DNA from: Dissostichus eleginoides
Lineage: Eukaryota
NCBI GenBank assembly: GCA_031216635.1
Contig: CM062274.1
Span: 26,420,913 to 26,484,912, forward strand
Length of the DNA: 64,000 bases
Reading direction: 5' to 3'
Under the pieces are notes generated by a model that worked only from the letters and a program-made list of their open reading frames with translations, was not told the DNA's origin and made no database searches. A program made the position numbers and the translations under genes. Positions 11,121 to 63,894 of this stretch are shown piece by piece. Position 1 is the first letter of the stretch. Every line of letters begins with the position of its first letter.

Positions 11121-12717
11121 ATGAGTATTGAAATATTCAAGACGTGTACAATTATAACGTAAATATGAATGATGGGGATCAAATTAAAAACAGTAAAGTG
11201 CAGCAGAACAATTTATTAATGTTAATTCTATCAATCAGCTTCACATAAGGTTGTGATGGTTCCTACATCCACAAAACACAAGTCATCATTTGCTTTGCCT
11301 GTCGGTCGTCAGGTCACTGCAGTCAACTCTGATTATCCACACGGTCCTGATGTAGCAGATTAGCTGCTTTTTTCTAAATTAATCCCTCAATTGTTGGTTA
11401 TTTATTTATTATGCTCACGCTTATTCAATGTCATAGACAAAAACTGTAGGTCCAAGGGGCTTTTAAACAAAATATTAAAGGATGAAATCCATTAATAATG
11501 GCCATAATACATAAGCATAAACTAGGCTTAGGGGGTAGCTTTTAAATTCATCTTTAAAGATATCAACACTTTCAGCTGCTCATAGACCCTCCGGCAGGCT
11601 GTTCTAATAGCTCGAAGCACAAAAACTAAAAGCTTTTGCTTTTTGGAACAACTTGTGTGAGGGGACCTGGGGGCTTGTTTCATCAAAAATGCAGCCTACA
11701 ATTTGCAACATGAGATAATACCCTCCTATTATACTGTTCAGAACAAATTCAATATTCGGGATGCATGCATGAGCATGCAAGGAAAGTGTAGTGCTTGAAA
11801 ACATTTTCCACAATTTGCGAGTGGCAATCTTTTGCAAACTGCACACCCTGGGTTACACTTTGCAGGCATGTTAGACAAATCAGCTGGTTCAAGGCTACTG
11901 TGTGTAGTGCTTTATAAACTGGTCATATTATTTCAAAGAAGCAATATAAAACTGAAAGGCAACCCCTCTGTAAAGACTTTAAAATGCTTGCTCTCCATTT
12001 GGTCTCAAACAACACTCAGCAGGCCGCACACTTCTGAATCAATTGTTACTGATTCATGACTGAAGCTCGAGTGCTACATGCCAGACAGCTAAGATATCAC
12101 AGCTGGAATATGAATGAATGTCTTGACAATGTTCCTTCAGTAAACACATCCCGAAAACTGCTGTGCAAACTCAAAGGGAAGCGTAAAGTAATGAGAAAGT
12201 AATGACTCATATCTCCATTCAGCCTTTCCTCTGAATAAAGCGGACTCACTGTGTCACTTCTAAAAGGCTACTCGTAGACAGCTTAGATGGCGAGTTAGAA
12301 AAGGGCAGAATATCAAAGCCAACATGCGATCAGCTTTCTCTAAAGTAGTTCTAAAATTAAACGCATGGAGACACGACTCAAACTGAGGTGCTGTCTGCAG
12401 CAGCTGGAAGAGTCAAGGGGAAATAGCTAAGGTATCATTAGTAAATGAACAGTTTTGATCTTTATGAAAAGAAATTCCCGCAGGCTGCAGAGAATTATTA
12501 AGGGTTGGGAAGGTTTATCTAAGAGTAAAATTATACTTGGAATACAATGATTTCAAAGCCTCCTATCCTTGTGTCTGAGAGTGATTCAGAATATTCTTTT
12601 CTTTTATCATTGATCCTCTCATCTCTCTGCAGATTTTCAGAAGCTTTGGAGGTTTCTGGTACCTGATGACGCAACCGCTGGCAGACAGAAATGGCATCTG
12701 TGAAAATCCCCACTGGG

Positions 12718-26107: not shown

Positions 26108-26850
26108 GTAAGTGGAACATCTGAAATCAAGTTTGTTATGAAATATAAATCCTACTTCTATATACTACTCTTGAATTGCCTAAAACATTACCGAATGTAA
26201 TGAAACGATTGCGTCTATGAGAATTCATTGTATCTAAAACAGAGGTGTCCAAACTTTTTTCACCGAGGGCCACATACAGAAAAACATACGAAGGGCTGGG
26301 CCGCTCATTAGAGGTATATTACCTCGTAAGTTCAGTTATAAATAAGCAAAATCAATCAAATGTAGGTAAATGAAGCTTGTGAGTGTTGGCAGCTCATCCC
26401 TTAAAACAGAAGATTGATTATAATAAGGAGAAATAGAAGGGTGTATTTCATGCTTGTTATGTAAATAAGTCATTGGGCTTTTTCTTAACAACTAAGATAT
26501 GTTAGAAAATGTTTCCAACTTTAATTGACTGAATCCATTGAAAAGTGGTCTTATTAACACATGAAAACTACTGTGTAGTATATTTTTACATTTATCTTTA
26601 AGAAGTACAATACAAGACAAGCACAAGTTTCATTTGTGGACCATATTCCATTATACTTTTTTAATTTGCTGAGGGCCGATTCAAAATGGTCCGCGGGCCG
26701 CATTTGGCCCCCGGGACGTAGTTTGGACACCCCTGATCTAAAAGATGCTTTTCTAATGAGTCTTTGATCCTCATTTCATCCTATGGGGAACCAGATGGCA
26801 ACAACACACTCATCTGTAGTGAGACTGTTTTCCACTCTCCTTATCCACAG

Positions 26851-27034
26851 CACCAGTTTGAAATACTCCAAGCGCAGCGAGACAGACGGCTCTCGGCTGC
26901 TGTTGGTGTGTGATGTGGCGCTGGGTCAGTGCATGGACGTCCATAAGAAAGACCTCACCCTGACCGAGGCTCCGGAGGGATACGACAGCGTGCACGGGGT
27001 CCGCCGCACCCCCAACACTCACTCTGAGTTTGTG
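26851..27034 (+). CDS. parp4: parp4 exon 12 (PARP catalytic)
   Basis: Translation TSLKYSKRSETDGSRLLLVCDVALGQCMDVHKKDLTLTEAPEGYDSVHGVRRTPNTHSEFV (human STSIKYSHPGETDGTRLLLICDVALGKCMDLHEKDFSLTEAPPGYDSVHGV). Donor gtg|gtaggt. Confidence 0.9.
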
Positions 27035-27038
27035 GTAG

Positions 27039-27492
27039 GTGTTTTCATGCTAATTGTTAAGAAAATATCACTCGTAACCGGCTTGAGCTTCAATAATCAG
27101 GATACATGTATTTATTATCCTTGCAAGAATGGAAGTAGTCATCACATACAGAGGATACAGTATGGGACAAATAGTTCCCAGAACAGTGTCCTTCAGATGC
27201 TTTATACAAGAGAGGGTGTATTCAGTCACAAGATGCAGAATACCGGTTCAAAGCAGTATACAATGTTTAGTTTAGATTAGCTAAGATCCACGTAAGCAAT
27301 GATCATGCTTGTCATATGTCTATCTCCATAGAGGCTGAATCATCATGTTAATCACATAGCTGTCGTATTTCTAAAACAGTCCTGATGCTCTTCTAGGTAA
27401 TCACACATCCTGTTACGCACACAGCTACGTACGGCCTTTGTTATCATGCGCTACTCTGATATTGGAAGAGTACATTCAGTATTTTCCCAACA
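27039..27492 (+). mobile_element. MITE family C copy 1 (~450 bp, TIR GTGTT(A/G)GGAAAATA)
   Basis: Begins 4 bp after the exon-12 donor. About 90% identical to the reverse complement of 33477-33899. Confidence 0.65.
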
Positions 27493-33476: not shown

Positions 33477-33899
33477 GTTGGGATAATACTGAATGTACTC
33501 TTCCAATATCAGAGTACACATGATAACAAAGGCCCTACGTAACTGTGTACATGACAGGATGTATGATTACCTAGAAGAGCATCAGGACTGTTTTAGGCAT
33601 ATGACAGCTATGTGATTAACATGATGATTCAGCTTCTATGGAGATAGACATATGACAAGCATGATCATTTCTGACGTGGAGCTAATCTGAACTAAACATT
33701 GAATACTGCTTTCTATTCCTCCATCTTGTGACTGTGTAACTCCCTCTCTTGTATATAAGCATGTGAAGGACACTTTTCAGGGGAACTATTTGTCCCAAAT
33801 GCTCTGTATGTGATGACTACTTCCATTATTACAAGGATAATTAATACATGTATCCTGACATTGAAGCTCAAGCCGGTGACGAGTGATATTTTCCTAACA
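33477..33899 (-). mobile_element. MITE family C copy 2 (inverted orientation)
   Basis: gttgggataatactgaatgtactcttccaatatcagag ... gtgatattttcctaacac is the reverse complement of copy 1. Lies in parp4 intron 19, ~60 bp upstream of exon 20. Confidence 0.65.
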
Positions 33900-41453: not shown

Positions 41454-43351
41454 CATGGGTCCTCTCTGAGAAGAAGAGGGGACGTGGACAGATCGGCACC
41501 TTCAGCAGCGTGTGAACCCCCCATGCGTGATTTTGAAGTAGCACTACATTCTTTTGAAATGCATCAATTGGATGAAGAATTGCATTTGGATTCAGACTGC
41601 TCATTTCATCCTCCATCATCTCCTCCTTTCCACATGAAGGAACTCACCCAAAAACGTTCTTTCCGTGCGCCTCTCCCTCTGATCAGTGGTCTTCCAAGCC
41701 GCTCATTTCATCCTCATGGACTAATGGCAGCAGAAGTTCCCAGACGCCACGTCATCATGTTCGGTGCAACGCAAGCTGCAACTGACTCAGATGTGTCGAT
41801 GAAGATGAGCGATGATGGGCCTGAACCTCCTGTGACAGGGAAAGCATTTTCATTCTCAAGACAGAAAAAAGCACTCTCCTATTCTGCTCATTCACTTCAA
41901 TGCCAGTCAACCTCTCAAGACCCTCCAGCTCCCCCTCCTCCTACTCTTGGTCCAGCTCCTCCGCTAGCTGAAATTTTACTTGGCACTAATGCCATGTCGG
42001 ATCAGGTCAGTGAGTCACTGGTGGGACGCGCTTTCGGGAACAGAGCGCTATCAGCTTCCTATCAAACAGGAACCTCCTCTGGTCTCTGGGATGCAGGATT
42101 GTTTGCACCCCAGGAACGCAGCTCGAGTTTTGGATCTCCTGTGAAAGGTCAGTCAGGAGGGTTTTCCAGTAGTGCAGCATCTTTATTCTCCTCAGATCAA
42201 AGACAAAAAGGAAGCTTATTTTCTGATGAACTTGAAAGGGCAGGCTTTGGTCTCATGGGTTGTGCGCTTGAAGAAGAACCCGTTAGACAAGATCAGCCAA
42301 TGAAAGATGCCCCTCCTGTTTCACTTGATGAAGCATCAGATGTCGATGTAGAGCGACGTATGCACAAATCCACAGGTAGACCATTAGCAATGCTTGAAGA
42401 AGATGATCCCTCATGTGGAAGTTCTTGGGGAGGACTGGTCCACATGAAGGAACTCGCCCAAAAATCTCCTCTTCGTGTGCCACTCCCTCCGGGTGGTCGT
42501 CAAATTCCCTCATTTCATCCTCGAGAACAAATGGCAGCAGAAGTTCCCCAACGCCACAGCATCATGAACGGTGCAACGCGAGCTGCAACTGATTCAGATG
42601 TGATGATGATGATGAACGACCGTGCGCCTGAACCTCCTGTCACAGGGAAAGCATTTTCATACAGAAATGCACTGTCCTATTCTGCACATTCACTTCAACG
42701 CCAGTCCACCTCTCGAGACCCTCCAGCTCCCCCTCCTCCTACTCTTGGTTCAGCTCCTCCGCTAGCTGAAAGTTTACTTGGCACTAATGCCATGCCGGAT
42801 CAGGTCAGTGAGCAAATGGAATCACAAGCTCTCAGGATCAGAGCGCTATCACCTTCCTATCAAACAGGAATCTCCTCTGGTCTCTGGTCTGGACTCCAAA
42901 GCAGCTTGAGTTGTCCCACCTTTCCAGGTGCTATGAATATCCATGTCGGTGCGTCTGATTTGGATATGACAACTGAATGTGCGACTGAATCTCCTGTGAA
43001 AGGTCAGCCAGGAGGGTTTTCCAGGAGTGCATCATCTTTATTCTCCACAGCTCAGCTCTTATTTTCTGATGAACAAGAAATGGCAGGCTTTGGTCTCAGG
43101 GGTTGTGCGCTTGAAGGAAAACCCATTAGACAAGATCAGCCAATGAAAGATGCCCCTCCTGTTCCACTTGATGAAGCATCAGGTGTCCATGTAGAGCGAC
43201 GTAGGCACAAATCCAGAGGTAGAGCATTAGCAATGCCTGAAGAAGATGATCCCTCATGTGGAAGTTCTTGGGGAGGACTGCTCCCGCGTAAACGTGGGAT
43301 TGGTTTTTTAAAGGCCTCCAGGATGCGTCAATCAGCTGATCAACCATTTGA
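41454..43351 (+). CDS. parp4: parp4 exon 32 (1.9 kb exon with two ~270-aa tandem repeats; S/P-rich)
   Basis: Open frame 41454-43352 (ORF 41484..43355). Acceptor gtgttttttag|cat is in phase with exon 31. Two ~810 bp tandem copies (FHMKELTQK...SCGSSWGGL / VHMKELAQK...SCGSSWGGL). The proposed donor tttga|gtgagt at 43352 overlaps an in-frame TGA. Confidence 0.78.
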
Positions 43352-43682
43352 GTGAGTCCCCAAACGTTTTTTTGTTTTAATAGATAAGCTCCTACTAAGA
43401 AAACTGTGATAACTATTGAATAATAGTTGTTGACAAAAAATGCTCTACTTATTTATAATTTTTTTAAAGGCTTTGGTTGACAAAATTAACATAGATGAAT
43501 TCATCTGCATGTTAACTGAAAAGTATTGTTGTAAATCCTCTGATTATGTACATGTATGCATGTGGGAAAAAAAGTCAGTATATGTGTGTATTTATGTTTA
43601 CATTCTTTGATTTATGTGTGTTTTTTAATACACAACATCCAGTGTTCTCTAAGAGTGTCCTGTTGTGATCATGTCGTTTCAG

Positions 43683-47290: not shown

Positions 47291-47561
47291 GCCTGAGCGT
47301 TGGGAGGAGGTGAAGAGGGCGGTGGACTGGGTCTGCTGGGCGGACCGGCAGTACCCGTGTGTCTACAGCCGGCTGGAGTTTGGATTCAGCTGGGAGTCCT
47401 CCACCCGCCAGCTGCTGGGCTTCGAAGGCCTCCCTCCCTTCTCCGCTCTCAGGGGGCTGAACCTGCAGAAGACCGTCCCCAGGTCCTGGTCCACTGAGCA
47501 GGATAGTGAGAGGGAGGTTCATACCCCTTTGCCTTTTTATGGGGATTACATAATCTATTAG
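47291..47561 (+). CDS. parp4: parp4 terminal coding exon 36 (stop TAG 47559-47561)
   Basis: Translation (R)PERWEEVKRAVDWVCWADRQYPCVYSRLEFGFSWESSTRQLLGFEGLPPFSALRGLNLQKTVPRSWSTEQDSEREVHTPLPFYGDYIIY* (human NIPWAFEAIKQASEWVRRTEGQYPSICPRLELGNDWDSATKQLLGLQPIS). Frame matches ORF 47310..47561. Confidence 0.82.
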
Positions 47562-50155: not shown

Positions 50156-50225
50156 ATGGAGGAAATCTATCTCAACCTTGACGATGTCAAACCCCTAAGC
50201 TCAAGATCATCAACAAAACAAGAAG
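50156..50225 (+). CDS. C-type lectin gene 1, exon 1 (cytoplasmic tail)
   Basis: Translation MEEIYLNLDDVKPLSSRSSTKQE, ATG at 50156, donor gaag|gtaagg. The paralogous exon sits at 61601. Confidence 0.8.
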
Positions 50226-50297
50226 GTAAGGGTCAGTCAGACAGAGTGAGCTGTGGATTTTGGATTTATTATACTCCCTGGTTTTCTCTGTGTTCAG

Positions 50298-50387
50298 GTC
50301 CCAGCAGATTTCCCCCAGCGTCTGTTCTCGGTCTGGGGCTGCTGGTTGTTTTCCTGCTGGCTGGACTCATCGGCCTCGCTGTCCACC
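50298..50387 (+). CDS. C-type lectin gene 1, exon 2 (transmembrane segment)
   Basis: Translation GPSRFPPASVLGLGLLVVFLLAGLIGLAVH is a hydrophobic signal-anchor typical of type II C-type lectin receptors. Donor cacc|gtgagt. Confidence 0.8.
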
Positions 50388-50605
50388 GTGAGTCTTATTT
50401 TTAATATATATATTATATTAGTTTCATAAGTCATTTTGAACGTGTGATTTTAAGGAGCAATATTCTGCTCTGAAAGATGCACATTTGACCAAAACATCTA
50501 TTGTTTTTCTATTTTTCTCCTAGGGCGAAAGTAGATAACATTCACTTTGGTTTGTGTCAGTCGGATTGCATCAGGTAATTTAAGAAACATCTTTTTTCAT
50601 TTCAG

Positions 50606-50793
50606 ACCATAACTCAGTAGGTGGCGCAGCTGCAGATCTCTCCGCTGTCAAAGCAAACCTGACGTTTGACGTGAGCGTCTCCAGGCCAGAGATCAGCTGC
50701 TCTACTCAGTGACTGAAGAGAGAGACAGACTGAATGCCAACCTCACTGAAAAGACCAGAGAGGTTGACAGGCTTCAGAGTTTGTCCAAACAGA
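50606..50793 (+). CDS. C-type lectin gene 1, neck exon (frame-inconsistent; possible internal acceptor at 50710)
   Basis: Homologous to the lectin-2 neck exon, with a single ...LQARDQL...NANLTEKTREVDRLQSLSKQ unit. Using the canonical acceptor cattcag|acc gives an in-frame TGA at 50710. Only the internal acceptor ctactcag|tg restores the frame shared with the donor caga|gtgagt. Confidence 0.5.
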
Positions 50794-51439
50794 GTGAGTG
50801 CTTTTCTATGACGGTTTTGCACAGGGCTGGGCAATATGGATTATATCAATTGTCATGATATTTTTGAGCAAATACCTCAATATTGCATCGATATTCTAAG
50901 GTTGGCAATTGCTCCTTTGAAATAATAACATGAGCGTACCAGAGAATGTCATTGGAAATGTTATAATGTGATTGAACAAAGATATAATGCAAACTTAAAA
51001 AGGTCAAAGACAAAAGATGTTACACTCTACAATGATGTCTTCATACTAGCGTGTTGTCTTTTCATAAAAATATGAAAAGATAACATGCCAACTTACTATA
51101 TGATGAAATCCAAAGTTCAACAAACTTATCTATTATTGTTGGACAATATCAATATATTGCCAAACCCTTCTGCATAAAAGTGTAGAACACCTTATTTTAC
51201 TCTCAGCACCTTTTCTTCACTCTCTGTTAATTTAATCATACATTTTTTTTATGTGTACAGCCCTTTAAAAAAAATCTTAGTAACATCATTTTAAAAGCTA
51301 AAAAGCTTCAGTCCCATCACTTCACATAATTATAAGATTGTGAATAACTAAATATCTCTTTATTAGGATGTTTTAAAAATGTTGACACCTTGTATTCTGC
51401 ACATTTTTAACTGCTCTCTTTTTATAGGTTCTGTCCCTG

Positions 51440-51840
51440 AAACTGCGCTGGTTCAGCCATTTCTAAAAAAGCCCTCACTTGATTCCCCATTCTTAAACAT
51501 TTTAGACATATTTCCAAGCTCCCATTTTTAGATAAAGTTTTAGAAAAAACTGTAGCAGAATAATTGTTAGCTTTTATCAATGACAACAATATTTTAGAGA
51601 AATTCTAATCTGGCTTTAGAAAAATTCATAGTACTGAAACGGCTCTTTTTGAAGTTTTTAATGACTTGTGTGATTTTATTTGTAGGCTTATTATATTTAT
51701 TTTCTATGTGTTTTTATGTTTACATGCTGTTGTTTAATTATCTAGCTCACCGTGTATTTTTATGTTAGAGCACTTTGTAACTGTGTTTTGAAAGGTGCTA
51801 TATAAATAAAGTGTATTATTATTATTATTATTATTTATAT
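51440..51840 (+). mobile_element. Second copy of the non-LTR 3' fragment family (in lectin-1 intron)
   Basis: Ends ...ttagagcactttgtaactgtgttttgaaaggtgctatataaataaagtgtattattattattattattt (tail + (TTA)n). Confidence 0.45.
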
Positions 51841-52222
51841 GGTGATCTACAAGATATATTTCCCAGGAATGTTTTTTATATCATCTTCCTTTTTTGATGT
51901 CATGTCAGTCAAAATTACCGCCTTTATTGCAGTATTTTTTTACTTGATTCATTAAGCAATTGGACTTATAGTACCGAGTAAGGAATCATAACAGACTCTT
52001 AAAATGATGCAGAGTGAGAGAAGTTTTATCCTTTGTCCCATGCAATGATACCGGTCTATCAGAATAGATCTTGGCTACCATCAACAATGCTTATTGAATA
52101 TGTATTTTTCAAAATCACACAAGGGACAAGAATGCTCTAAGAGTTGAATATTTCAGCAAGGAGTCAACTAAATCTTACAACTCAAAAGAAGGTAATAAGG
52201 CATGTCTTGTGTTTTTTTGCAG

Positions 52223-52365
52223 AGAAAACGTGTCCTGCAGGATGGAGGATGGTCGGTTGTGTCTGTTATCTCCTCTCTACGGGGAAAGCTTCATGGGAAC
52301 AAAGCAGACAAAACTGCAGAGCCAGAGGAGCAGATCTGGTGATCGTAGACAGTAATGAAGAACAG
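52223..52365 (+). CDS. C-type lectin gene 1, CTLD exon A
   Basis: Translation KKTCPAGWRMVGCVCYLLSTGKASWEQSRQNCRARGADLVIVDSNEEQ (CTLD CPxGW...CY...W..S...C...GA.L..I.S.EEQ). Frame matches ORF 52144..52437. Confidence 0.85.
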
Positions 52366-53939
52366 GTAATGTGTGCTGCTTTAACAATTTATTGTTTTAC
52401 TTATCTGAATCATATACAGAATATAAAGGTTCTTTAATTGAATAGGTGCCAATGTATATTGAATAATTAAAATTAACAAAACTTTGATTTTATATTTTTT
52501 ATATGGTGGTTTTATCTATCATTTAGCTTATTTATTACTTATCTACTTCACAGCTGTGTGTTATCGTTACTGGCTTTTATGCACAATGAGTTATTTTACT
52601 TTTGATACTTCAAGTTTATTTTTATGCTAATACTTTAGTGTTTAAGTACAAATGTTCCCAAAGATGACCACACCCCTTTGTACTACACTGCGTTCAATTG
52701 TGTTTTTATTGCATGCTTTTATGTGTATCTTTCATACGTATCATTTAGATTAGATTACAAAAATGAAATGTATGATTTATGTGTAACGACTGAATGAACA
52801 CCAGTAGAGGACTCAATAGTGTTGTGTTCAAAATTCCAGGAAAGACAGACAACTTCTAAGTTTAACTATTTATTATAAGAGAGCAAAATATATATATTCA
52901 CTTGGCCAAGGACTCCGTCACGTCATAGAAATCACAGGCAGCAAAGCTGTAATCTGTAACCTTGGTTTAGACTTTGGCTCTCTCTTGTTGGTACACAGAC
53001 TCAGATAAGGTCTCTTGGCAACACGACCTTCCAATCAGCATTCGGCCGGCCGGCGAAGTCCCTCCCTATACTATCCGCTATCCTAGTAATTTGTTTTCAC
53101 TAAAGCTGCTTTGCAGGCATATAGTGGAATCCTTCATTTACACTGCTTCCTAGCTATGCGTGGGTGCGAAGCTCCCATACAACTCGAGGCCGGAGCGATG
53201 TCCTGTGTATGAATAACTCTTTGTATGCTTCCAGTGTCTGCACCTGACCTTGCTACTCTGTATTGCAGGCTAAAACTTTCTTATGTGACTTTTCCCTTCG
53301 TTTCCTATACAATCCATCAAACCTTGGGATTGGTGATTTTGTCTATTTATTCCAAAGTCACATCAACATAAAATGAGCACAATAAGCTTATAATGTAATA
53401 ATAAGAATCAGTCTTTCTAATGTTATACAAAAATAGACTCCACAATAGCACGACTCAGGGACAGAGGCTTAGGTTGCAAAAAGGTCTTTATAGCAGAGGC
53501 TCGGCACACGGGAGATCAGTCAGTAAGGCAACCAAAACAGGTGAGGATTAGGCAGGAACAGGGTCAGGACACGAAGCTGGGTCAGGTACACGTGGAAACA
53601 AGATACTAGTAGGAATAAACACTGCTGGAATGCTAGGAATAACAAAGACGAACTGGCACTGAGGGGAATGTGGACGCAGACTAAATAGACAGGGGGAGGG
53701 ATGATAATGGGGCACAGGTGAGGCTAATTAGGGATGGGAAGCAGGTGGAGTTCAATCAAGGGCAAGAAAGCTGAAACTGAAATGAGAGAAACAAAATAAA
53801 AACAGGAATACTGTAATAACAAAAACATCAACATGCTGGCTAGGGCCTTACATTATGTCTGAGTTAGTTAGAAGGGAATAGTTATCCGAATGTCGATGTT
53901 GATCCCTGTAAACTTCATTTATAATATGTTTAAGACTAA

Positions 53940-54128
53940 GGCCCGTCCACACGGAGAAGAAACCAAGACGAAACCGATTTCGAACTGAAGTCGTTTTCAA
54001 AAAAGTCTTCCGTCCAAACGAAACCGCTCGAAACCGCTGGAGAGGCTGTAGTACATATGCCGGGCCTGTAAGTGGCGCTGTACTTCCGCCACAAAATACA
54101 CCAAAAGCAGCGAATAAGACCGATGATG

Positions 54129-54174
<46 letters not shown>

Positions 54175-54566
54175 CATTATTGTTGCTGATGGTTGTGGTA
54201 GAGGAGCTGTAGATTTTTCACTAACATCTGTATCATGGTCGGTAGCGTCTGGAGCATGAATGCAACCCTGTGATCCGCCATTGTTGTTGTTGTTGGCGAA
54301 ACGCATCAGCAATGACGCGGGGTGAGCAGGAGAGGTGGGGAGAGGCGGGGCTATGGCGTCATCGATTCAGGAAATGATCGTATAGGGCGTATACACGGAG
54401 CTGCAAGCGTTTCGTCTCCAGACTTACCCACTTTGGGAGCCGTTTTCAAAGTGTATCGGTTTCGGGCTCCGAAGCCGCGGCTCCGTTTCGGCTTCGTGTG
54501 GACAAACCGTCTACGATAAAGAACTTTAGCGGATGCAACTGAAATCGTCTCCGTGTGGATGGGGCC
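53940..54566 (+). mobile_element. TIR element (GGCCCGTCCACACGGAGA termini) containing (ATT)n
   Basis: 5' ggcccgtccacacggagaag ... 3' tctccgtgtggatggggcc are perfect ~17-bp inverted termini. Internal (ATT)14 at 54130-54172. In lectin-1 intron 4. Confidence 0.65.
54130..54172. repeat. (ATT)n microsatellite
   Basis: (att)x14 inside the TIR element 53940-54566. Confidence 0.95.
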
Positions 54567-54608
54567 TAAGACATCAGGACCTTTTATATTAATATTTTTC
54601 TTTTACAG

Positions 54609-54712
54609 AAGTTCATGACCAGCATGATCAAGGAACCAACTTGGATTGGGTTGAATGACATAGACCAAGAGGGGACCTGGAAATGGGTCGATGGATCTCT
54701 ACTGACTCAGAA
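54609..54712 (+). CDS. C-type lectin gene 1, CTLD exon B
   Basis: Translation [34 protein letters not shown] (WIGL.D...EG.W.WVDGS). Acceptor ttttacag|, donor cagaa|gtaagg. Confidence 0.85.
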
Positions 54713-55856
54713 GTAAGGCATAGTTGATATTATAGGTGCCTTCATACTATAGCTGTGCGTTACATGGCTTTTTTGTATGACTGTCTAAACATAATTATTA
54801 ATTGTTAATACTTTTCTGAATTTACGGAACCCAAGTCTAGAAACTGCTGATCATAACCATTCAACGTTTTTGTTGTATTTAAGAGAATAATGAAAGGGGT
54901 GTCTTAATAAAAATGAGGTGTGCTTCTTTTTTTTCTTGAATCAGCAATTTGCCCCAAAATAGAGGAAAGCAGGCAGTGAAAGTACATCAGAAGTGTGGGG
55001 GACTTCAACAAATTGACGAAACATGCATTGAACATTTGACCTTGGGAATAAAATTGGTGGGAAGCCAAAACTCCAAAGTAGATTTTACTAGAAATTAGGG
55101 GATGGGGGAAATAATTGATACAGCATAGTATCGCGATACTTTGCGTGGCGATATTGTATAGATATACGGACGCCAAGTATCGATATTTTATTATATAAAC
55201 TGTAGCATATCCCTCGGAAAGATGGTCGTACACTTGACTGATGATTTCAAATGTATTGAAAACTCCAAAAACCAACGTAAGAGCTACACAAAGAAACAAA
55301 ACAACAAATACACTTAGGCTACATCCATATGAGCATGACTTTAGAATACCATTAAACAAGAGAACTTCAAATAGTTAGCAAAGTTATAATACATAAACGA
55401 ATTAAGACACAAACCACATTTTTATATTACAGTTAACACTAACCTTGTGCCTCTTCGGGGGGTGCTAATACTTAAATGTAAACTTTATCTTTGATATCGC
55501 CGTATTTAAAGGTTGGTATCTCTGTTAATATCTGTACTTTATCTCCGTTCTTTTCCAACGTCAAGTTTTTGCTTTGGGAACAGTAACTTCCTGCTAATAG
55601 CGCAAAGTCGCCTTCAAAATAAAAGCATGTCTATATAAAACAGGAAGTTACGTTAAGACATGTATACAATTGCAATGAAAGCAACAAAAACAATGCCATC
55701 TCCTTTTCAGGTTCAATGAACACAAATTAGGTTATTTACATAAACTATTCATATTGCAAATACATTTTTTAAAGGGAAGACGGACATGGATATGCAATAT
55801 ATCGTATCGCAATACTTAGCATATCGTAGAACCGCAATACTTTCGTATCGTGTCTT

Positions 55857-56243
55857 AAAGGTGGGGTAGGTAATTCGCTTCAGAAACACTTTTTGTTATA
55901 TTCCATGGAATGCTCTTAACATCCGATAGCAATGAATATATTAAATGCTTTGACAATAAACACATTAAAAAATGTCATCTGTGGAAGCCGTGGCGCTGCA
56001 AAAAGCACGACCAATCATCTGAGCCGGCCCGGCCAAAATAACTGGATGGCCTACCTGCCTGTCAGCCTTCCATCTGTGCACAAACTTATCTCGTGCTCTC
56101 ATTGGTCATGTGCGCGTTCGTGTGTGTTGGAGGAGGGGCTCTGTAAGGAAGTCTGAAGGAAGGGGCAGATTTTTTTCGACTGCGTACTTTCAAATTCTAG
56201 CGCACTCGAGCTGGTTTCTCCATTCTTACCTACCCTACCTTTA
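55857..56243 (+). mobile_element. MITE family A copy (in lectin-1 intron 5)
   Basis: aaaggtggggtaggtaattcgcttcag ... ctcgagctggtttctccattcttacctaccctaccttt. Flanked by tatcgcgata / (GTATC)n-like palindromic repeats at 55100-55200, 55800-55856 and 56245-56290. Confidence 0.6.
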
Positions 56244-56599
56244 AGTATCGCGATAGTATCGTATCGTATCGTATCGCGGGGAGCCTGGTGATTCCCACCC
56301 CTGCTAGAAATACATAAAGCTGCATTTATGATGTTTTGGCATCATGTGGAAGCTGTGGATTGCTTGATTGGAATCAGAAGTAAAGGTCTGTGTTTCGATG
56401 CCCAGCCCATACAATTAACATGTTGTTGTGTTGATGTGTTATTGAACCCCACAAGCAATTGGCATAACCAAATGTGTGGGGATTTTGGTCTCTTTGAGCA
56501 TGGGTGTAAATGGGTGAATGCTATATGTAAAAAGCATTTAAATGCAGTTCAAGTTGGGGGGAGGTATCCTCAAAAACTAACTTTTGTATGACTTCCTAG

Positions 56600-56753
56600 G
56601 TACTGGGGAAAGCCACCTGATAATGGTAATGGTGATCCTAAGTGGGGTGAAGAGGACTGTGCATGTCTTGTAAATAACTGGAATGGTGAAAACAACTGGA
56701 ATGATCTGCGGTGTACTACCCCTCTGCAATGGATCTGTGAAAAAATACTGTAG
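56600..56753 (+). CDS. C-type lectin gene 1, CTLD exon C (stop TAG 56751-56753)
   Basis: Translation YWGKPPDNGNGDPKWGEEDCACLVNNWNGENNWNDLRCTTPLQWICEKIL*, with the WND and conserved Cys. There is no canonical EPN/QPD triplet. Confidence 0.85.
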
Positions 56754-57680: not shown

Positions 57681-58850
57681 ATGGATAACCTCGCATCACT
57701 AACCGCCAACATAGCACAGATGGGACATCAACTCAACCTGGTTTCAACTCATCTTACTCCGCCTGCTCCTGAGGATCCAGCTCCCCCACAAGAGTTAGCA
57801 CCGGTTCCAGCCCAGCCCGCTCTCCCTTCACGTGAGCCAAATATTCCCACTCCAGAGCGGTACGCAGGTGCCTTAGGGACATGTAAGTCTTTCTTAATGC
57901 AGTGTTCTCTTGTCTTTGAGCAGCAGCCGTCTACTTATGCTAACGACAGAGCTAAGATTTGTTATATGATAGGTTTACTTACGGGTAGCGCCCTAGCCTG
58001 GGCATCAGCTGTATGGGAGAGTCAGTCCAACCTTTGTAATTCTTATCCAGAGTTTGCAGAGGAAATGAAGAAAGCATTCCACCACCCCGTCAGCGGTAGG
58101 GACGCTACTAAACGCCTCCTCTCACTGCGACAGGGCTCCCGTAGTGTAGCCGAATACTCAGTGGAATTTAGGACCTTAGCTGCAGAGGCGGGTGGAATGA
58201 CACAGCGCTTCAAGGGGTTTTTCCAACAGGGCTAACTGATTCTGTTAAGGATGAGTTAGCAGTGAGGGACGAATCAGCTAACTTGGATGAGTTGGTCTCC
58301 CTAGCCATAAGACTGGATAACCGCCTTAGGGAGCGACGTAGGGAAAGAGCCAGCCGATCTCCTGGGTCACTCCCCTCTCGCCCTGTCTCGTCTCCTCTCG
58401 CAAGATTCAGGTCGGAAACTTTCCCAAGTCCCAGTGCCCCATCTGAATTATTTTCTCCTCTCCTGTCTTCAGAGGAACCGATGCAGCTAGGCAGAGCCCG
58501 ACTCACTCCCCAAGAACGTCTCCGGAGAATAAGAGAAGGACTTTGTGTCTACTGTGCTCACTCCGGTTCGTGGACAAATGCCCCCAGCGCCCAAAAGAGG
58601 GTGCTCGCCAGTAAAGGTGGGGATACTGGTGAGCAAGGCTGTTTCTTCCTCAACCCCCCAGACCTGCAAGCCACTTGGAGCCACACTGTTGTTAAACCAA
58701 CAGTCTCTCACTCTGCCTGCCCTAGTGGACTCTGGGGCTGATGAGAGCTTTTTGGATGCCCAACTGTGGCTCTGCAGCAGGTTTACTCGACATTGTCGCC
58801 GTTTCTCAATGTCGAGTAAACCTGCTGCAGAGCCACTATTTCAAGTATAG
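57681..58850 (+). mobile_element. Ty3/gypsy-type LTR retrotransposon fragment (gag + start of protease, frameshifted)
   Basis: ORF 57681..58235 is a retrotransposon Gag-like sequence (…[18 protein letters not shown]…). ORF 58262..58741 contains a zinc-knuckle-like [11 protein letters not shown] 58545..58850 contains the aspartic protease motif [10 protein letters not shown]. The three run in different frames and truncate before RT, so the element is decayed. Confidence 0.7.
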
Positions 58851-59555: not shown

Positions 59556-60056
59556 AGGAAACATCTGATTGGCTATAGATAGAACAAATTACAAGTACGA
59601 ATCGTGTGACTGTCAGGGGACTCTTCAAAAACCCACACACGAATGCACAGCAATCCATGCACAGAAAGTGGGTTGTGTTTGCAGGTGCAGCGGTTTTAAA
59701 CGGAAAACAAATATGTGTTGATCAAAAATACATATGCAAAACTTTTTTCTGTGTTTGTATTTTATTTACATGTATATAAAAAGGGACACATTTGTGTGTG
59801 CATTGAAAAACACAAGTGTGAATCCGGAAATACAAGTGTGACTCCTTCTGTGTGCATGTGTGTATTATGAGACTGTTCTGAGCCCATACAACAGTGAGGA
59901 AAAAACAACTCGTACCTCGCAGACCACACAGACCTGGGTGTCTGAACGGATGCCATAGAGGTCCTATTCCTTGCGGCGGCATCTTTGACACGAGAGTTGG
60001 CCTCCTCCCACAGCACAGTCTCCGATGCGTGTGTTGGTAGCTTGGCACGCTACATC

Positions 60057-60061
60057 CCTCT

Positions 60062-60100
<39 letters not shown>

Positions 60101-60160
60101 TTCATTTATTCATTTATTTATTTATTTATTTATTTATTTATTCATTTATTCATTTATTTA
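60057..60160. repeat. (ATTT)n microsatellite with TTCATTTA variants
   Basis: tttatttatttattt... about 25 units. Confidence 0.95.
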
Positions 60161-60758
60161 ACAGGGACAGTGCACATTAATTAACATTGCTGTAAATGTG
60201 CCAGAGTTAGCCAAGAGGCTATTTTTCGTCTGTAGTCCCTGGACAGATTTTACAGTCAACCAAAAACACATTTCATTTTAAACAAGTAAATACAATCAAA
60301 TTAAAACATGCAACATACAGTACTGGAATACTTAAATAAAACAATTAAAAGACAGAACAATAAAACAAAACAAATAAAACAAAACAAAAGAACATGATAA
60401 AACACAGACAGTGGGTTGTAAGGTGCAGAAGATTGTGTCAGTGTTGGCAGAGCTGATTCCTCACTAACCAGGTTTTGAGTTTGGATTTAAATAAACTGAA
60501 TGTAGTCTGGTCTCTGATTGTAGAGCAGCTTTAACAGAAAATGATGACTGACCGAAATAACTTTTTCTGAGTGGAATAATGCAATCTCCTCTCTCTGCAC
60601 CTCTTGTTATCCTAGTTGCAGTTGTGTGTATGTTAATAAACTGTCTAAGAGGAGGTGAGGTAAGGCCGTTGACAATCTTGTAAAAAAGGCAAGCATTTGC
60701 ATGTTTAATTAGGTTTTCCCAGCTCAACAAGTTGTGCGTATGTTGGTAGCTTGGCATG

Positions 60759-61064
60759 CTACTTCCTCTCTGCAACAACAGTCGGACGGAGGTTGTCGTC
60801 GGGTTCCGGGATACGCTTGCAGTGGCTGGCGTGGATCCAAGGAATCTTTCCGGCAACCTTCACGGCGGTCTTGGTGATGAGGAGAATGTGGAACGGACCC
60901 TGGAACCGTTGCTGCTTCCAGTGTTTCCTCCTGAAGTCTTTGATCACTACCCAGTCACCGGGCTTGTGGTGTTGTGGCGCATCAGCTGGCGTCGGCAGTA
61001 CGGCTTTCACCTGAGAGTGGATAGCTGAGAGGGAGACTGAAAGACTTATACAGTAGTTCAACAA
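60759..61064 (-). mobile_element. Retroelement integrase C-terminal fragment
   Basis: Minus-strand ORF ...PGDWVVIKDFRRKHWKQQRFQGPFHILLITKTAVKVAGKIPWIHASHCKRI is the GDWV/SH3-like integrase C-terminal domain typical of gypsy/retroviral integrases. The motif gttggtagcttggca(c/t)gctac is duplicated at 60033-60060 and 60737-60765. Confidence 0.6.
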
Positions 61065-61600: not shown

Positions 61601-61670
61601 ATGGAGGAAATCTATGCCAATGTTGACGATGTCATATCCCTAAGCTCAAGATCATCAACAATACAAGAAG
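61601..61670 (+). CDS. C-type lectin gene 2, exon 1 (cytoplasmic tail)
   Basis: Translation MEEIYANVDDVISLSSRSSTIQE is the paralog of 50156-50225 and sits in the same promoter context. Confidence 0.8.
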
Positions 61671-61743
61671 GTAAGAGTGTCAGTCAGAGTGCACTGTGGA
61701 TTTTGGATTTATTGTATTACTCCCTGGTCTTCTCTGTGTTCAG

Positions 61744-61833
61744 GTCCCAGGAGATTTCCCCCAGCGTCTGTTCTCGGTCTGGGGCTGCTGGGTGTTTTCC
61801 TGCTGGCTGGACTCATCGGCCTCGCTGTCCACT
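61744..61833 (+). CDS. C-type lectin gene 2, exon 2 (transmembrane)
   Basis: Translation GPRRFPPASVLGLGLLGVFLLAGLIGLAVH, donor cact|gtgagt. Confidence 0.8.
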
Positions 61834-62040
61834 GTGAGTCTTTCTTTTAATACGTTTAATAATGTCATTTTGAACGTGTGATTTTCAAGAGTAATATTCT
61901 GCTCTGAAAGATGCACATTTGACCAAAACATCTATCGTCTTTCTACTTTTCTCCAAGGGCCAAATTAGGAAAACATTGACCATGGTTTGTGTCAGTATGA
62001 TTGCATCAGGTAATTTAAGAAACATCTATTTTCATTCCAG

Positions 62041-62328
62041 ACCATAACTCAGTAGGTGTTGCAGCTGAGCATCTCCAGGCCAGAGATCAGCTGATCAACC
62101 AGCTGAAGGCCAACCTCACTGAGCGTCTCCAGGCCAGAGATCAGCTGATCAACCACCTGAATGTAAACCTGACTGAGCGTCTCCAGGCCAGAGATCAGCT
62201 GATCAACCAGCTCAATGTAAACCTCACTGAGCGTCTCCAGGCCAGAGATCAGCTGATCAACCAGCTGAAGGCCAACCTCACCGAAAAGACCAGAGAGGTG
62301 GACAGGCTTCAGAGTTTGATGGACAAGG
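62041..62328 (+). CDS. C-type lectin gene 2, neck exon with 4 x 18-aa repeats
   Basis: Translation YHNSVGVAAEH + (LQARDQLINQLKANLTER)x4 variants + ...KTREVDRLQSLMDK. Phase-consistent with flanking exons. Confidence 0.8.
62083..62298 (+). repeat. Coding 54-bp tandem repeat x4 (lectin-2 neck)
   Basis: ctccaggccagagatcagctgatcaacc(a/c)(g/c)ctgaa(g/t)g(c/t)(c/a)aacct(c/g)ac(t/c)gag(cgt/aag) x4. Each unit encodes LQARDQLINQL(K/N)(A/V)NLTE(R/K). Confidence 0.9.
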
Positions 62329-63055
62329 GTGAGTGCTTCATGTGGGGTTTTGCATCGGGCTCGGTATGTATATGTAAGATATCAATTATCATAATATGTT
62401 TTACAAAATACCTCGATATTGATAGTCTAAGGCTGACTATTGATCCTTTCATAAAATAGTTACACAATGACACTTTTTCATTAATGATAATCATGAATTA
62501 GTTTTTAATGACTTAGTTGTGAATGATTTCATTTATAGTTTGTTTTATTTTTCTTCAGCCACCATATTTATATTTCTCTGTAAACTATGCTTATGGCCAG
62601 TTTCCTTGTCTAAATACTTTAATATAAGCAATAGGAAGAAGAACTTAGAGGTAGTTTGTTCCAGATATTTGCAGCATAATAATAAAAAAGGATAACAAGG
62701 TTTCAAACCAATTTAGAACTGTTGCCGAAAGTCAGACCCAGTTTTCCAGTCGGTCTAGAAACTAACACCGAGATGTTGCCACTGTCTGTGTTTAAGTGGA
62801 TGTCATTGAAGACTTTAACAAGATCAGTCTCAGTGCTGTGGTGCCTGACTAGATCACATCGAAACAGTTATTTAAATCCCAAAAAAGAGAAGTAGTTGCT
62901 CTGCAATGAAATATGTGATCTCTTTTGATCCCTCTAAAAATGCTTGATAAATATTTTTTTTCATTATTATTACAAAAGTGACATATAATGCACTCAAGAG
63001 TTCCATATTCCAGCAGTTAAAGCAGTAAATCAACAAGATCTTAACACTTTTACAG

Positions 63056-63198
63056 AGAAAACGTGTCCTGCAGGATGGAGGAAGTTTGGTTGTTCCTGTT
63101 ATCTCCTCTCTACTGAGAAAGCTTCTTGGGAACAAAGCAGAGACAACTGCAGAGCCAGAGGAGCAGATCTGGTGATCGTAGACAGTAAGGAAGAACAG
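63056..63198 (+). CDS. C-type lectin gene 2, CTLD exon A
   Basis: Translation EKTCPAGWRKFGCSCYLLSTEKASWEQSRDNCRARGADLVIVDSKEEQ. Confidence 0.85.
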
Positions 63199-63416
63199 GT
63201 AATGTGTGCTGCTCTAACACTTGTGATTGTATAACTCCCTGCTTTTATCAATCAATAATGTTTTTATTGTACATATACTAGCAAATGTGTCTATCAGCTA
63301 TAATGATTACGTCACAACAATGGTGTTAATTACATATTTCTGAGCTAATAAAAAGGGAAAAGTTATCTGAATGGTGATGTCCATCCAAGTAAACTGCATT
63401 TTTAATATGTGAACAG

Positions 63417-63529
63417 GAATTCATCTCTAGCATGAAGATGAAGGAACAAACTTGGATTGGTTTGAGTGACAGAGAAGAGGAGGGGACCTGGAAATGGGTG
63501 GATGGATCTCCACTGACCCTGACTCTGAC
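63417..63529 (+). CDS. C-type lectin gene 2, CTLD exon B
   Basis: Translation [38 protein letters not shown]. Acceptor gtgaacag|, donor ctgac|gtaagg. Confidence 0.8.
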
Positions 63530-63772
63530 GTAAGGCTTTACTTTGGTTTAAATACAGACGCTGGTTTATGTTGTGACCTTTCTAAATGTTTCACATGTTT
63601 CTGTAATGGGAGTTAACACAACACACAGGATGCATTTAAACGTAGGGTGTCTGCCCCTTTCACCAGAAGATTCATTTGGGTATTAAGAAAAGAACATGGC
63701 TGTATTACTTATAGTTATTTGTATTTGATGTCCAATCTTTTAGTTATCTTGTTTTCCTGTAATACCTGTTAG

Positions 63773-63894
63773 GTTTTGGAACGGAGGAGAGCCTAATATT
63801 GGCGAGAGACTGTGCAGAATTGTATCCTTACACCAATGGGTGGAACGACCAGTCCTGTCGGGACAATGTGCATTCGATCTGTGAGAAAGATTAA
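63773..63894 (+). pseudogene. C-type lectin gene 2, last CTLD exon with apparent 1-bp deletion (frameshift)
   Basis: The in-phase reading gives FWNGGEPNIGERLCRIVSLHQWVERPVLSGQCAFDL*. The +1 frame from ~63814 gives canonical DCAELYPYTNGWNDQSCRDNVHSICEKD*. Compared with paralog 56645-56660 (ggtgaagaggactgtgca), this exon reads ggcgagagactgtgca, one G short. Confidence 0.55.

Follow-up and report, generated by a model that had tools for sequence, protein, structure and literature searches.

DC-SIGN (CD209), DC-SIGNR and Mincle (CLEC4E) are type II membrane lectins that combine a neck of tandem repeats with a long-form C-type lectin domain. The pairing of the cysteines and the roles of the Ca2+ and sugar ligands are well established for the C-type lectin fold, and the neck of DC-SIGN comprises 7.5 repeats of 23 amino acids. 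In mouse, the CD209 genes form a tandem DC-SIGN-like family in which some copies are disabled and their neighbours are intact; one member of the array, SIGNR6, is said to have been described as a pseudogene by Powlesland and colleagues in 2006. A similar arrangement is seen in a 64-kb stretch of Patagonian toothfish (Dissostichus eleginoides) DNA, hereafter the window, in which two C-type lectin genes lie in tandem on the + strand of AT-rich vertebrate DNA (39% GC). The downstream copy, gene 2, shares the architecture of the DC-SIGN group, and its lesion differs from that of mouse SIGNR6 in being known from one assembly only. Mincle and DC-SIGN are its best single-domain matches in the PDB (E = 4.5e-34 and 1e-30, respectively). 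With its reading frame repaired, the gene 2 domain is 47% identical to that of DC-SIGN, with EPN-IGEEDCAE aligned to EPNNVGEEDCAE, and it shares with the group the WIGLSD, EPN, EEDCAE and WND motifs as well as six cysteines. In contrast to the DC-SIGN neck, that of gene 2 is built from four 18-residue units, and the loop between EPN and the following cysteine is one residue shorter (EPN-IGEEDC in gene 2, EPNNVGEEDC in DC-SIGN). As assembled, gene 2 further departs from DC-SIGN by running out of frame past GEPNIGE.

Arrays of 'CD209 antigen-like protein' genes are also found in notothenioids, namely in T. bernacchii (RefSeq models P0007-P0023) and in a second D. eleginoides assembly (genes B-E). 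These genes have the same six-exon structure as gene 2, and the arrays resemble the window in their module order, a type-1 gene followed by a type-2 gene, with DNA identities of 92-96%. Gene 2 of the window differs in carrying the frame lesion and in having one AAT codon fewer. From 46.7 kb on, the window is collinear with a duplicated gene-1/gene-2 module in T. bernacchii.

Gene 2 (61601-63894, + strand) consists of six exons with GT-AG borders throughout. Exon 1 (61601-61670, +) encodes the cytoplasmic tail MEEIYANVDDVISLSSRSSTIQE (MEEIYANV...), which includes an acidic YxxV motif and matches the annotated protein P0001 at 100%. Exon 2 (61744-61833, +) encodes the transmembrane segment VLGLGLLGVFLLAGLIGLAV, a hydrophobic 20-mer assigned by eye from the sequence. 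Exon 3 (62041-62328, +; 288 nt) translates as the neck, in which Tandem Repeats Finder detects a 54-nt (18-aa) unit repeated 4.0 times in tandem at 62065-62281. The lectin domain starts in exon 4 (63056-63198, +; CPAGWRKFGCSCY...NCRARGADLVIVDSKEEQ) with Cys0, Cys0' and Cys1, continues through exon 5 (63417-63529, +), which opens with WIGLSD... and ends in phase 2, and closes in exon 6 (63773-63894, +), which follows an AG acceptor. The N-terminal tail, the single transmembrane segment and the repeat neck together predict a type II topology. Judged from its sequence, gene 2 is a fish CD209/CLEC4-like type II membrane lectin and a member of a tandem array. Its carbohydrate-recognition domain is predicted to be EPN-type and Ca2+-dependent.

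As assembled, the coding sequence of gene 2 measures 826 nt, one more than a multiple of three. Read in phase with exon 5, exon 6 holds the EPN codons (gag cct aat, 63789-63797, +) in the incoming frame, yields T-FWNGGEPNIGERLCRIVSLHQWVERPVLSGQCAFDL (that is, ...GEPNIGERLCRIV...AFDL) and terminates at a TGA (63882-63884, +), giving a product of 271 aa. An out-of-phase ORF at 63808-63894 (+), DCAELYPYTNGWNDQSCRDNVHSICEKD, contains Cys2, WND (63841-63849), Cys3 and Cys4 and ends at the conserved stop (63892-63894). The first-pass annotation had described a last lectin exon with its conserved C-terminus in a frame other than the incoming one. The gene model, the translation and the Pfam scores bear this out, and both its in-phase translation and its alternative frame were reproduced exactly for exon 6. 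Against a Pfam cut-off of 22.6 bits, gene 2 matches Lectin_C (PF00059) with 65.0 bits as assembled (profile positions 2-92) and with 85.9 bits once the frame is repaired (positions 2-107). Because the repair adds 21 bits and completes the profile, the resemblance to a textbook ending is not a matter of chance. All six cysteines (C1-C4, C2-C3 and the N-terminal pair) share one frame only after a repair of +2 or -1 nt, and as assembled EPN is in frame while WND is out of it.

The lesion site, GGCGAGAGACTGT (63801-63813, +), corresponds to GGYGAAGAGGACTGT (G-E-E-D-C) in the alignments with paralogues, and the frame switches between 63806 and 63808; the wider context as assembled is CCTAATATTGGCGAGAGACTGTGCAGAATTG. 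Set against the consensus of the paralogues, GGYGAAGAGGAC, the window sequence GGCGAGAGAC lacks one A of an AA and one G of a GG. Adding two nucleotides (e.g. GA) or removing one restores ...GEPNIGE(R)DCAELYPYTNGWNDQSCRDNVHSICEKD and the stop. The lesion had first been read as a 1-bp deletion that left the exon one G short, yet a single added G gives ...GEETVQNCILTPMGG..., in which the frame is still broken, since 826 nt call for +2 or -1. Likewise, the string gagagagactgt, put forward as the version with one extra G, in fact adds two bases, and the paralogue string used for comparison begins at 56646 rather than 56645 and has 18 nt against 16 nt in gene 2. The loss of one G from a GA run is thus unsupported as a mechanism: on balance the exon has changed by -2 or +1 nt, and its loop is in addition shortened in frame by 3 nt, as gene 2 is also one AAT codon short of P0006 and of gene B of the second assembly (EPNNIDEEDCAEL). 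The explanations offered in that annotation, namely a young pseudogene, an assembly indel or a lineage-specific change, are in our judgement the right ones.

The in-frame loop forms considered for gene 2 were GGCGAAGAGGAC, GGCGAGAGAGAC and GGCGAGGAC. A single contiguous deletion from the paralogue consensus was rejected, as no one deletion of 2 nt or of 5 nt yields the window sequence. The GAGAGAC of gene 2 is a subsequence of GAAGAGGAC and in turn contains GAGGAC as one; both GAAGAGGAC and GAGGAC are in-frame variants. Two routes would fit equally well. In one, two separate 1-nt losses would have occurred from GAAGAGGAC; in the other, an in-frame codon loss to GAGGAC would have been followed by the insertion of a single A.

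With the EPN-to-Cys loop either 2 nt short or 1 nt long, translation would exit the domain after GEPNIGE and would stop 10 nt ahead of the normal gene 2 stop. The 271-aa product as assembled retains Cys0, Cys0', Cys1, WIGLSD and EPN, and loses Cys2, WND, Cys3 and Cys4. Since these three cysteines and WND are absent, it would be predicted to form neither core disulfide nor a complete primary Ca2+/sugar site. Because the premature stop sits in the final exon, the transcript would not be expected to undergo nonsense-mediated decay. An AlphaFold2 model of the as-assembled domain, computed with no alignment supplied, has a mean pLDDT of 46 and is of low confidence throughout.

The stretch between EPN (or QPD) and the cysteine is the most length-variable part of the exon, spanning 15-36 nt among six paralogues and orthologues, and the remaining exon 6 alignment of the six sequences is gapless save for one 3-nt indel before WND. 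The lesion therefore lies where indels arise and persist naturally. The syntenic gene-2 copy of T. bernacchii has a different, QPD-type last exon (82% identity), which argues that exons have been exchanged among paralogues. In the same copy (L004 35185-35307), the loop reads GAG AGG ACA CAC TGT (ERTHC), so that the conserved GAGGAC stands in a different frame and is followed by four extra bases; the gene is annotated as functional (compare P0007). This loop looks like a compensated frameshift.

Gene 1 (50156-56753, +), the upstream tandem paralogue, is the orthologue of T. bernacchii P0020 (93% identity) and is of the KPPDN type. Its translation and that of gene 2 confirm the contrast drawn in the first-pass annotation between KPPDN in gene 1 and EPN in gene 2, which is the only EPN-type copy in the window. 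Gene 1 does not stand as the intact comparator for which it had been taken, as its exon 3 carries a frameshift of its own. An 8-nt insertion, GTTTGACG (50664-50671, +), is missing from both T. bernacchii copies (with the insertion CTGACGTTTGACGTGAGC, against CTGACTGAGC) and brings a TGA into frame about 40 nt further on. Together with the frame break in gene 2, it leaves both lectin genes of the window disrupted as assembled. The insertion is unlike a typical residual long-read error and suggests that the two-gene module is decaying. A protein search recovered no Dissostichus orthologue of gene 1, the sole Dissostichus match being the paralogue model P0002.

Several further elements accompany the two genes. 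Two Ty3/gypsy-type gag ORFs (57681-58741 and 59791-60898; Pfam Retrotrans_gag, Ty3_capsid) lie between them. Another insertion of about 1.1 kb, missing in the paralogous copies compared, is located 0.7 kb upstream of the gene 2 start codon and includes a (TTTA)n microsatellite (~60060-60160). PARP catalytic-domain fragments (Pfam PF00644, E = 3e-10) are present in the window at 26783-27280 (+) and 33641-33899 and in the second assembly at L003 1-1634 and 22934-26191. They adjoin the lectin modules in both assemblies with 92-94% identity and appear to be part of the duplicated lectin unit. An ORF of 623 aa at 41484-43355 (+) consists of two similar, Ser/Pro-rich halves; it gives no Pfam hit and finds no exact counterpart in the protein collection. 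At 47292-47483 (+), a 64-aa stretch with no Pfam match shares 96.9% identity with the C-terminal region of T. bernacchii P0032 ('C-type lectin domain family 6 member A-like'); the block in which this stretch lies, upstream of gene 1, is present in duplicate in T. bernacchii.

The second, independent D. eleginoides assembly, GCA_025770515.1, was produced from CLR data with Canu and Pilon (PMC10910785) and contains a tandem lectin array on JAOVFM010000009.1 (L001, L003). Its gene B (L003 3678-5971) is the closest copy to gene 2, with 95.8% identity over 3.1 kb, an identical N-terminus of 24 aa and a neck exon that is likewise 288 nt long. Gene B is fully open (828 nt, 275 aa) and its last exon is intact; gene C is open in exons 3-6, those examined. 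We regard gene B as a paralogue and not an allele, because its 2.5% substitutions exceed the 1.4% between orthologous DNA of D. mawsoni and D. eleginoides and its flanks are only 90% identical. A search among the neighbours of P0004, P0002, P0076 and P0046 found no true gene 2 allele in the second assembly or in D. mawsoni, only paralogues of 89-96% identity.

The last lectin gene of the array, beside a MITF/TFE-like gene, has lost 23 nt of exon 5 and with them the GLSDREEE part of the WIGLSD motif. This deletion is found in D. mawsoni (L005 ~11648-11652) and in the second D. eleginoides assembly (L006 ~11655-11659), and being common to both species it marks a genuine pseudogene that predates their split. 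The deposited models P0046 and P0076 mask this deletion. Over 16.8 kb of alignment between L005 and L006, the D. mawsoni sequence is the shorter one at 34 one-base gaps, against 13 in the reverse direction, which suggests unpolished long-read errors in that CLR assembly.

Neither published annotation of D. eleginoides models the CD209-like array correctly, the entries being truncated, fused or of the read-through kind. The best database match to gene 2 is P0001, annotated as 'C-type lectin domain family 4 member E' of Dissostichus eleginoides, which shows 100% identity with the window across exons 1 and 3 as well as 12 codons read through into intron 3. P0001 runs through the exon-5 donor into a TAA in intron 5 (63531-63533, +; ...LTLT), so exon 6 was left out by the annotators' EVM pipeline. 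Altogether, this model ignores two donors and splices to a cryptic acceptor within exon 4. In the second assembly, P0004 leaves out the first exon and the last exon of gene B (L003 3678-5971), both of them intact, and P0002 is a fusion of two genes with one last exon read out of frame. P0006, encoded in the first assembly on the same contig as P0001, joins exon 4 directly to exon 6 (...DSKKNR followed by FWNGGEPNNIDEEDCAEL...). This join would imply that AAGGAAG (AAGGAAGAACAG), where exon 4 ends, has lost 1 nt and that exon 5 is skipped, and P0006 would then represent a third frame lesion of the lectin family in that assembly. Apart from P0001, no protein in the database is more than 92% identical to gene 2. 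Twenty ORFs from both strands, taken around the site and from other parts of the window, were looked up exactly, and none is in a collection of 15 billion proteins; the first ten represented the as-assembled sequence and three hypothetical repairs.

We give about an even chance to the lesion being present in the fish itself, either as a very young pseudogene or as a segregating null allele of a lectin array undergoing birth and death; its germline nature and the order of the events are what we infer. The occurrence of a further frameshift pseudogene of the family in Dissostichus (the 23-nt exon-5 deletion), the 8-nt insertion in gene 1 next door, the position of the lesion in a hotspot for indels and the avoidance of exon 6 by the EVM model P0001 all count towards a real lesion. 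The assembly that contains the window, GCA_031216635.1, was built from PacBio Sequel I CLR data with FALCON-Unzip, Arrow and Pilon; its Merqury QV is 32.89, or about 1 error per 2 kb, and its BUSCO score is 97.9% for the genome and only 84% for the annotation (PMC11569150). The genome score implies few coding frameshift errors in unique sequence and counts in the same direction. Since the splice sites, the five other exons, and 28 conserved codons and the stop after the shift are all intact, a real pseudogene would have to be very recent.

Somewhat short of an even chance, and a serious contender, is an assembly artefact, in which the exon is intact in the fish and the out-of-frame loop stems from long-read consensus or short-read polishing. 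The lesion resembles known long-read frameshift artefacts, in which small deletions of homopolymer length affect repeated sequence of a short-read-polished CLR assembly (PMC8812927, PMC11569150). Two 2-nt homopolymers of a purine-rich run have each lost one base, at a place where the paralogues differ in length, and the rest of gene 2 is flawless. Errors in repeats survive short-read polishing (PMC8812927), and this locus consists of tandem copies that are 90-96% identical. The modest QV of this CLR assembly and the gap between its two BUSCO scores are compatible with such an origin, as is the distribution of lesions: all three copies examined in the first assembly have frame lesions (gene 1, gene 2 and, putatively, P0006), against the open reading frames of gene B and of exons 3-6 of gene C in the second. 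The artefact could have arisen if two in-frame alleles or paralogues set apart by a 3-nt indel in the purine run (GAAGAGGAC and GAGGAC) were merged into a consensus of intermediate length; GAGAGAC is their exact intermediate, and an unphased consensus of a heterozygous 3-nt indel would yield it. Alternatively, paralogue reads could have been mis-mapped during Pilon polishing. However, the commonest long-read error pattern does not look like this, as the homopolymers are only 2 nt long and the two changes lie 3 nt apart. Two independent CLR consensus errors so placed would be rare at ~89x coverage and would need a special mechanism. The window shows no deletion bias relative to T. bernacchii, its 1-nt deletions not being in excess (36 against 41 one-base gaps), nor relative to the second assembly, a comparison too weak to exclude errors at QV 33, and over 3 kb gene B and gene 2 differ by only two 1-nt indels outside the loop. 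The 8-nt insertion in gene 1 is also hard to blame on polishing and makes real decay at the locus plausible. The reads of the sequenced individual are those of SRP524971.

It is improbable, in our estimate, that the loop is a recurrent frameshift hotspot in which a second nearby indel sometimes rescues the frame, with the toothfish exon as an uncompensated intermediate; the ERTHC loop of T. bernacchii would be the rescued counterpart. Slightly less probable still is that gene 2 functions through the cryptic AG at 63805-63806 (+), the only alternative acceptor found, or another site: splicing exon 5 to 63807 does give an open frame (...LTLT-DCAEL...), but the product would drop FWNGGEPNIGE and thus EPN with the preceding strand, the 25 nt before this AG are purine-rich (ACGGAGGAGAGCCTAATATTGGCGAG) and have no pyrimidine tract, in contrast to the good tract of the normal acceptor 33 nt upstream, and such an architecture is seen in 0 of the 15 homologues inspected.

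The main value of these observations is practical, as notothenioid lectin repertoires can be miscounted from such assemblies and models. The only EPN-type copy of the window is either dead or mis-assembled, and both outcomes are routine. If the lesion is an artefact, it would illustrate cleanly how the consensus of a CLR assembly can fall out of frame in a coding loop of variable length. If the loop is indeed a hotspot, paired indels would create new sugar-binding-loop sequences in notothenioid CD209-like lectins. If the lesion is real, the Patagonian toothfish would have lost both genes of one CD209-like module, which would add a small data point on the turnover of immune genes among notothenioids.
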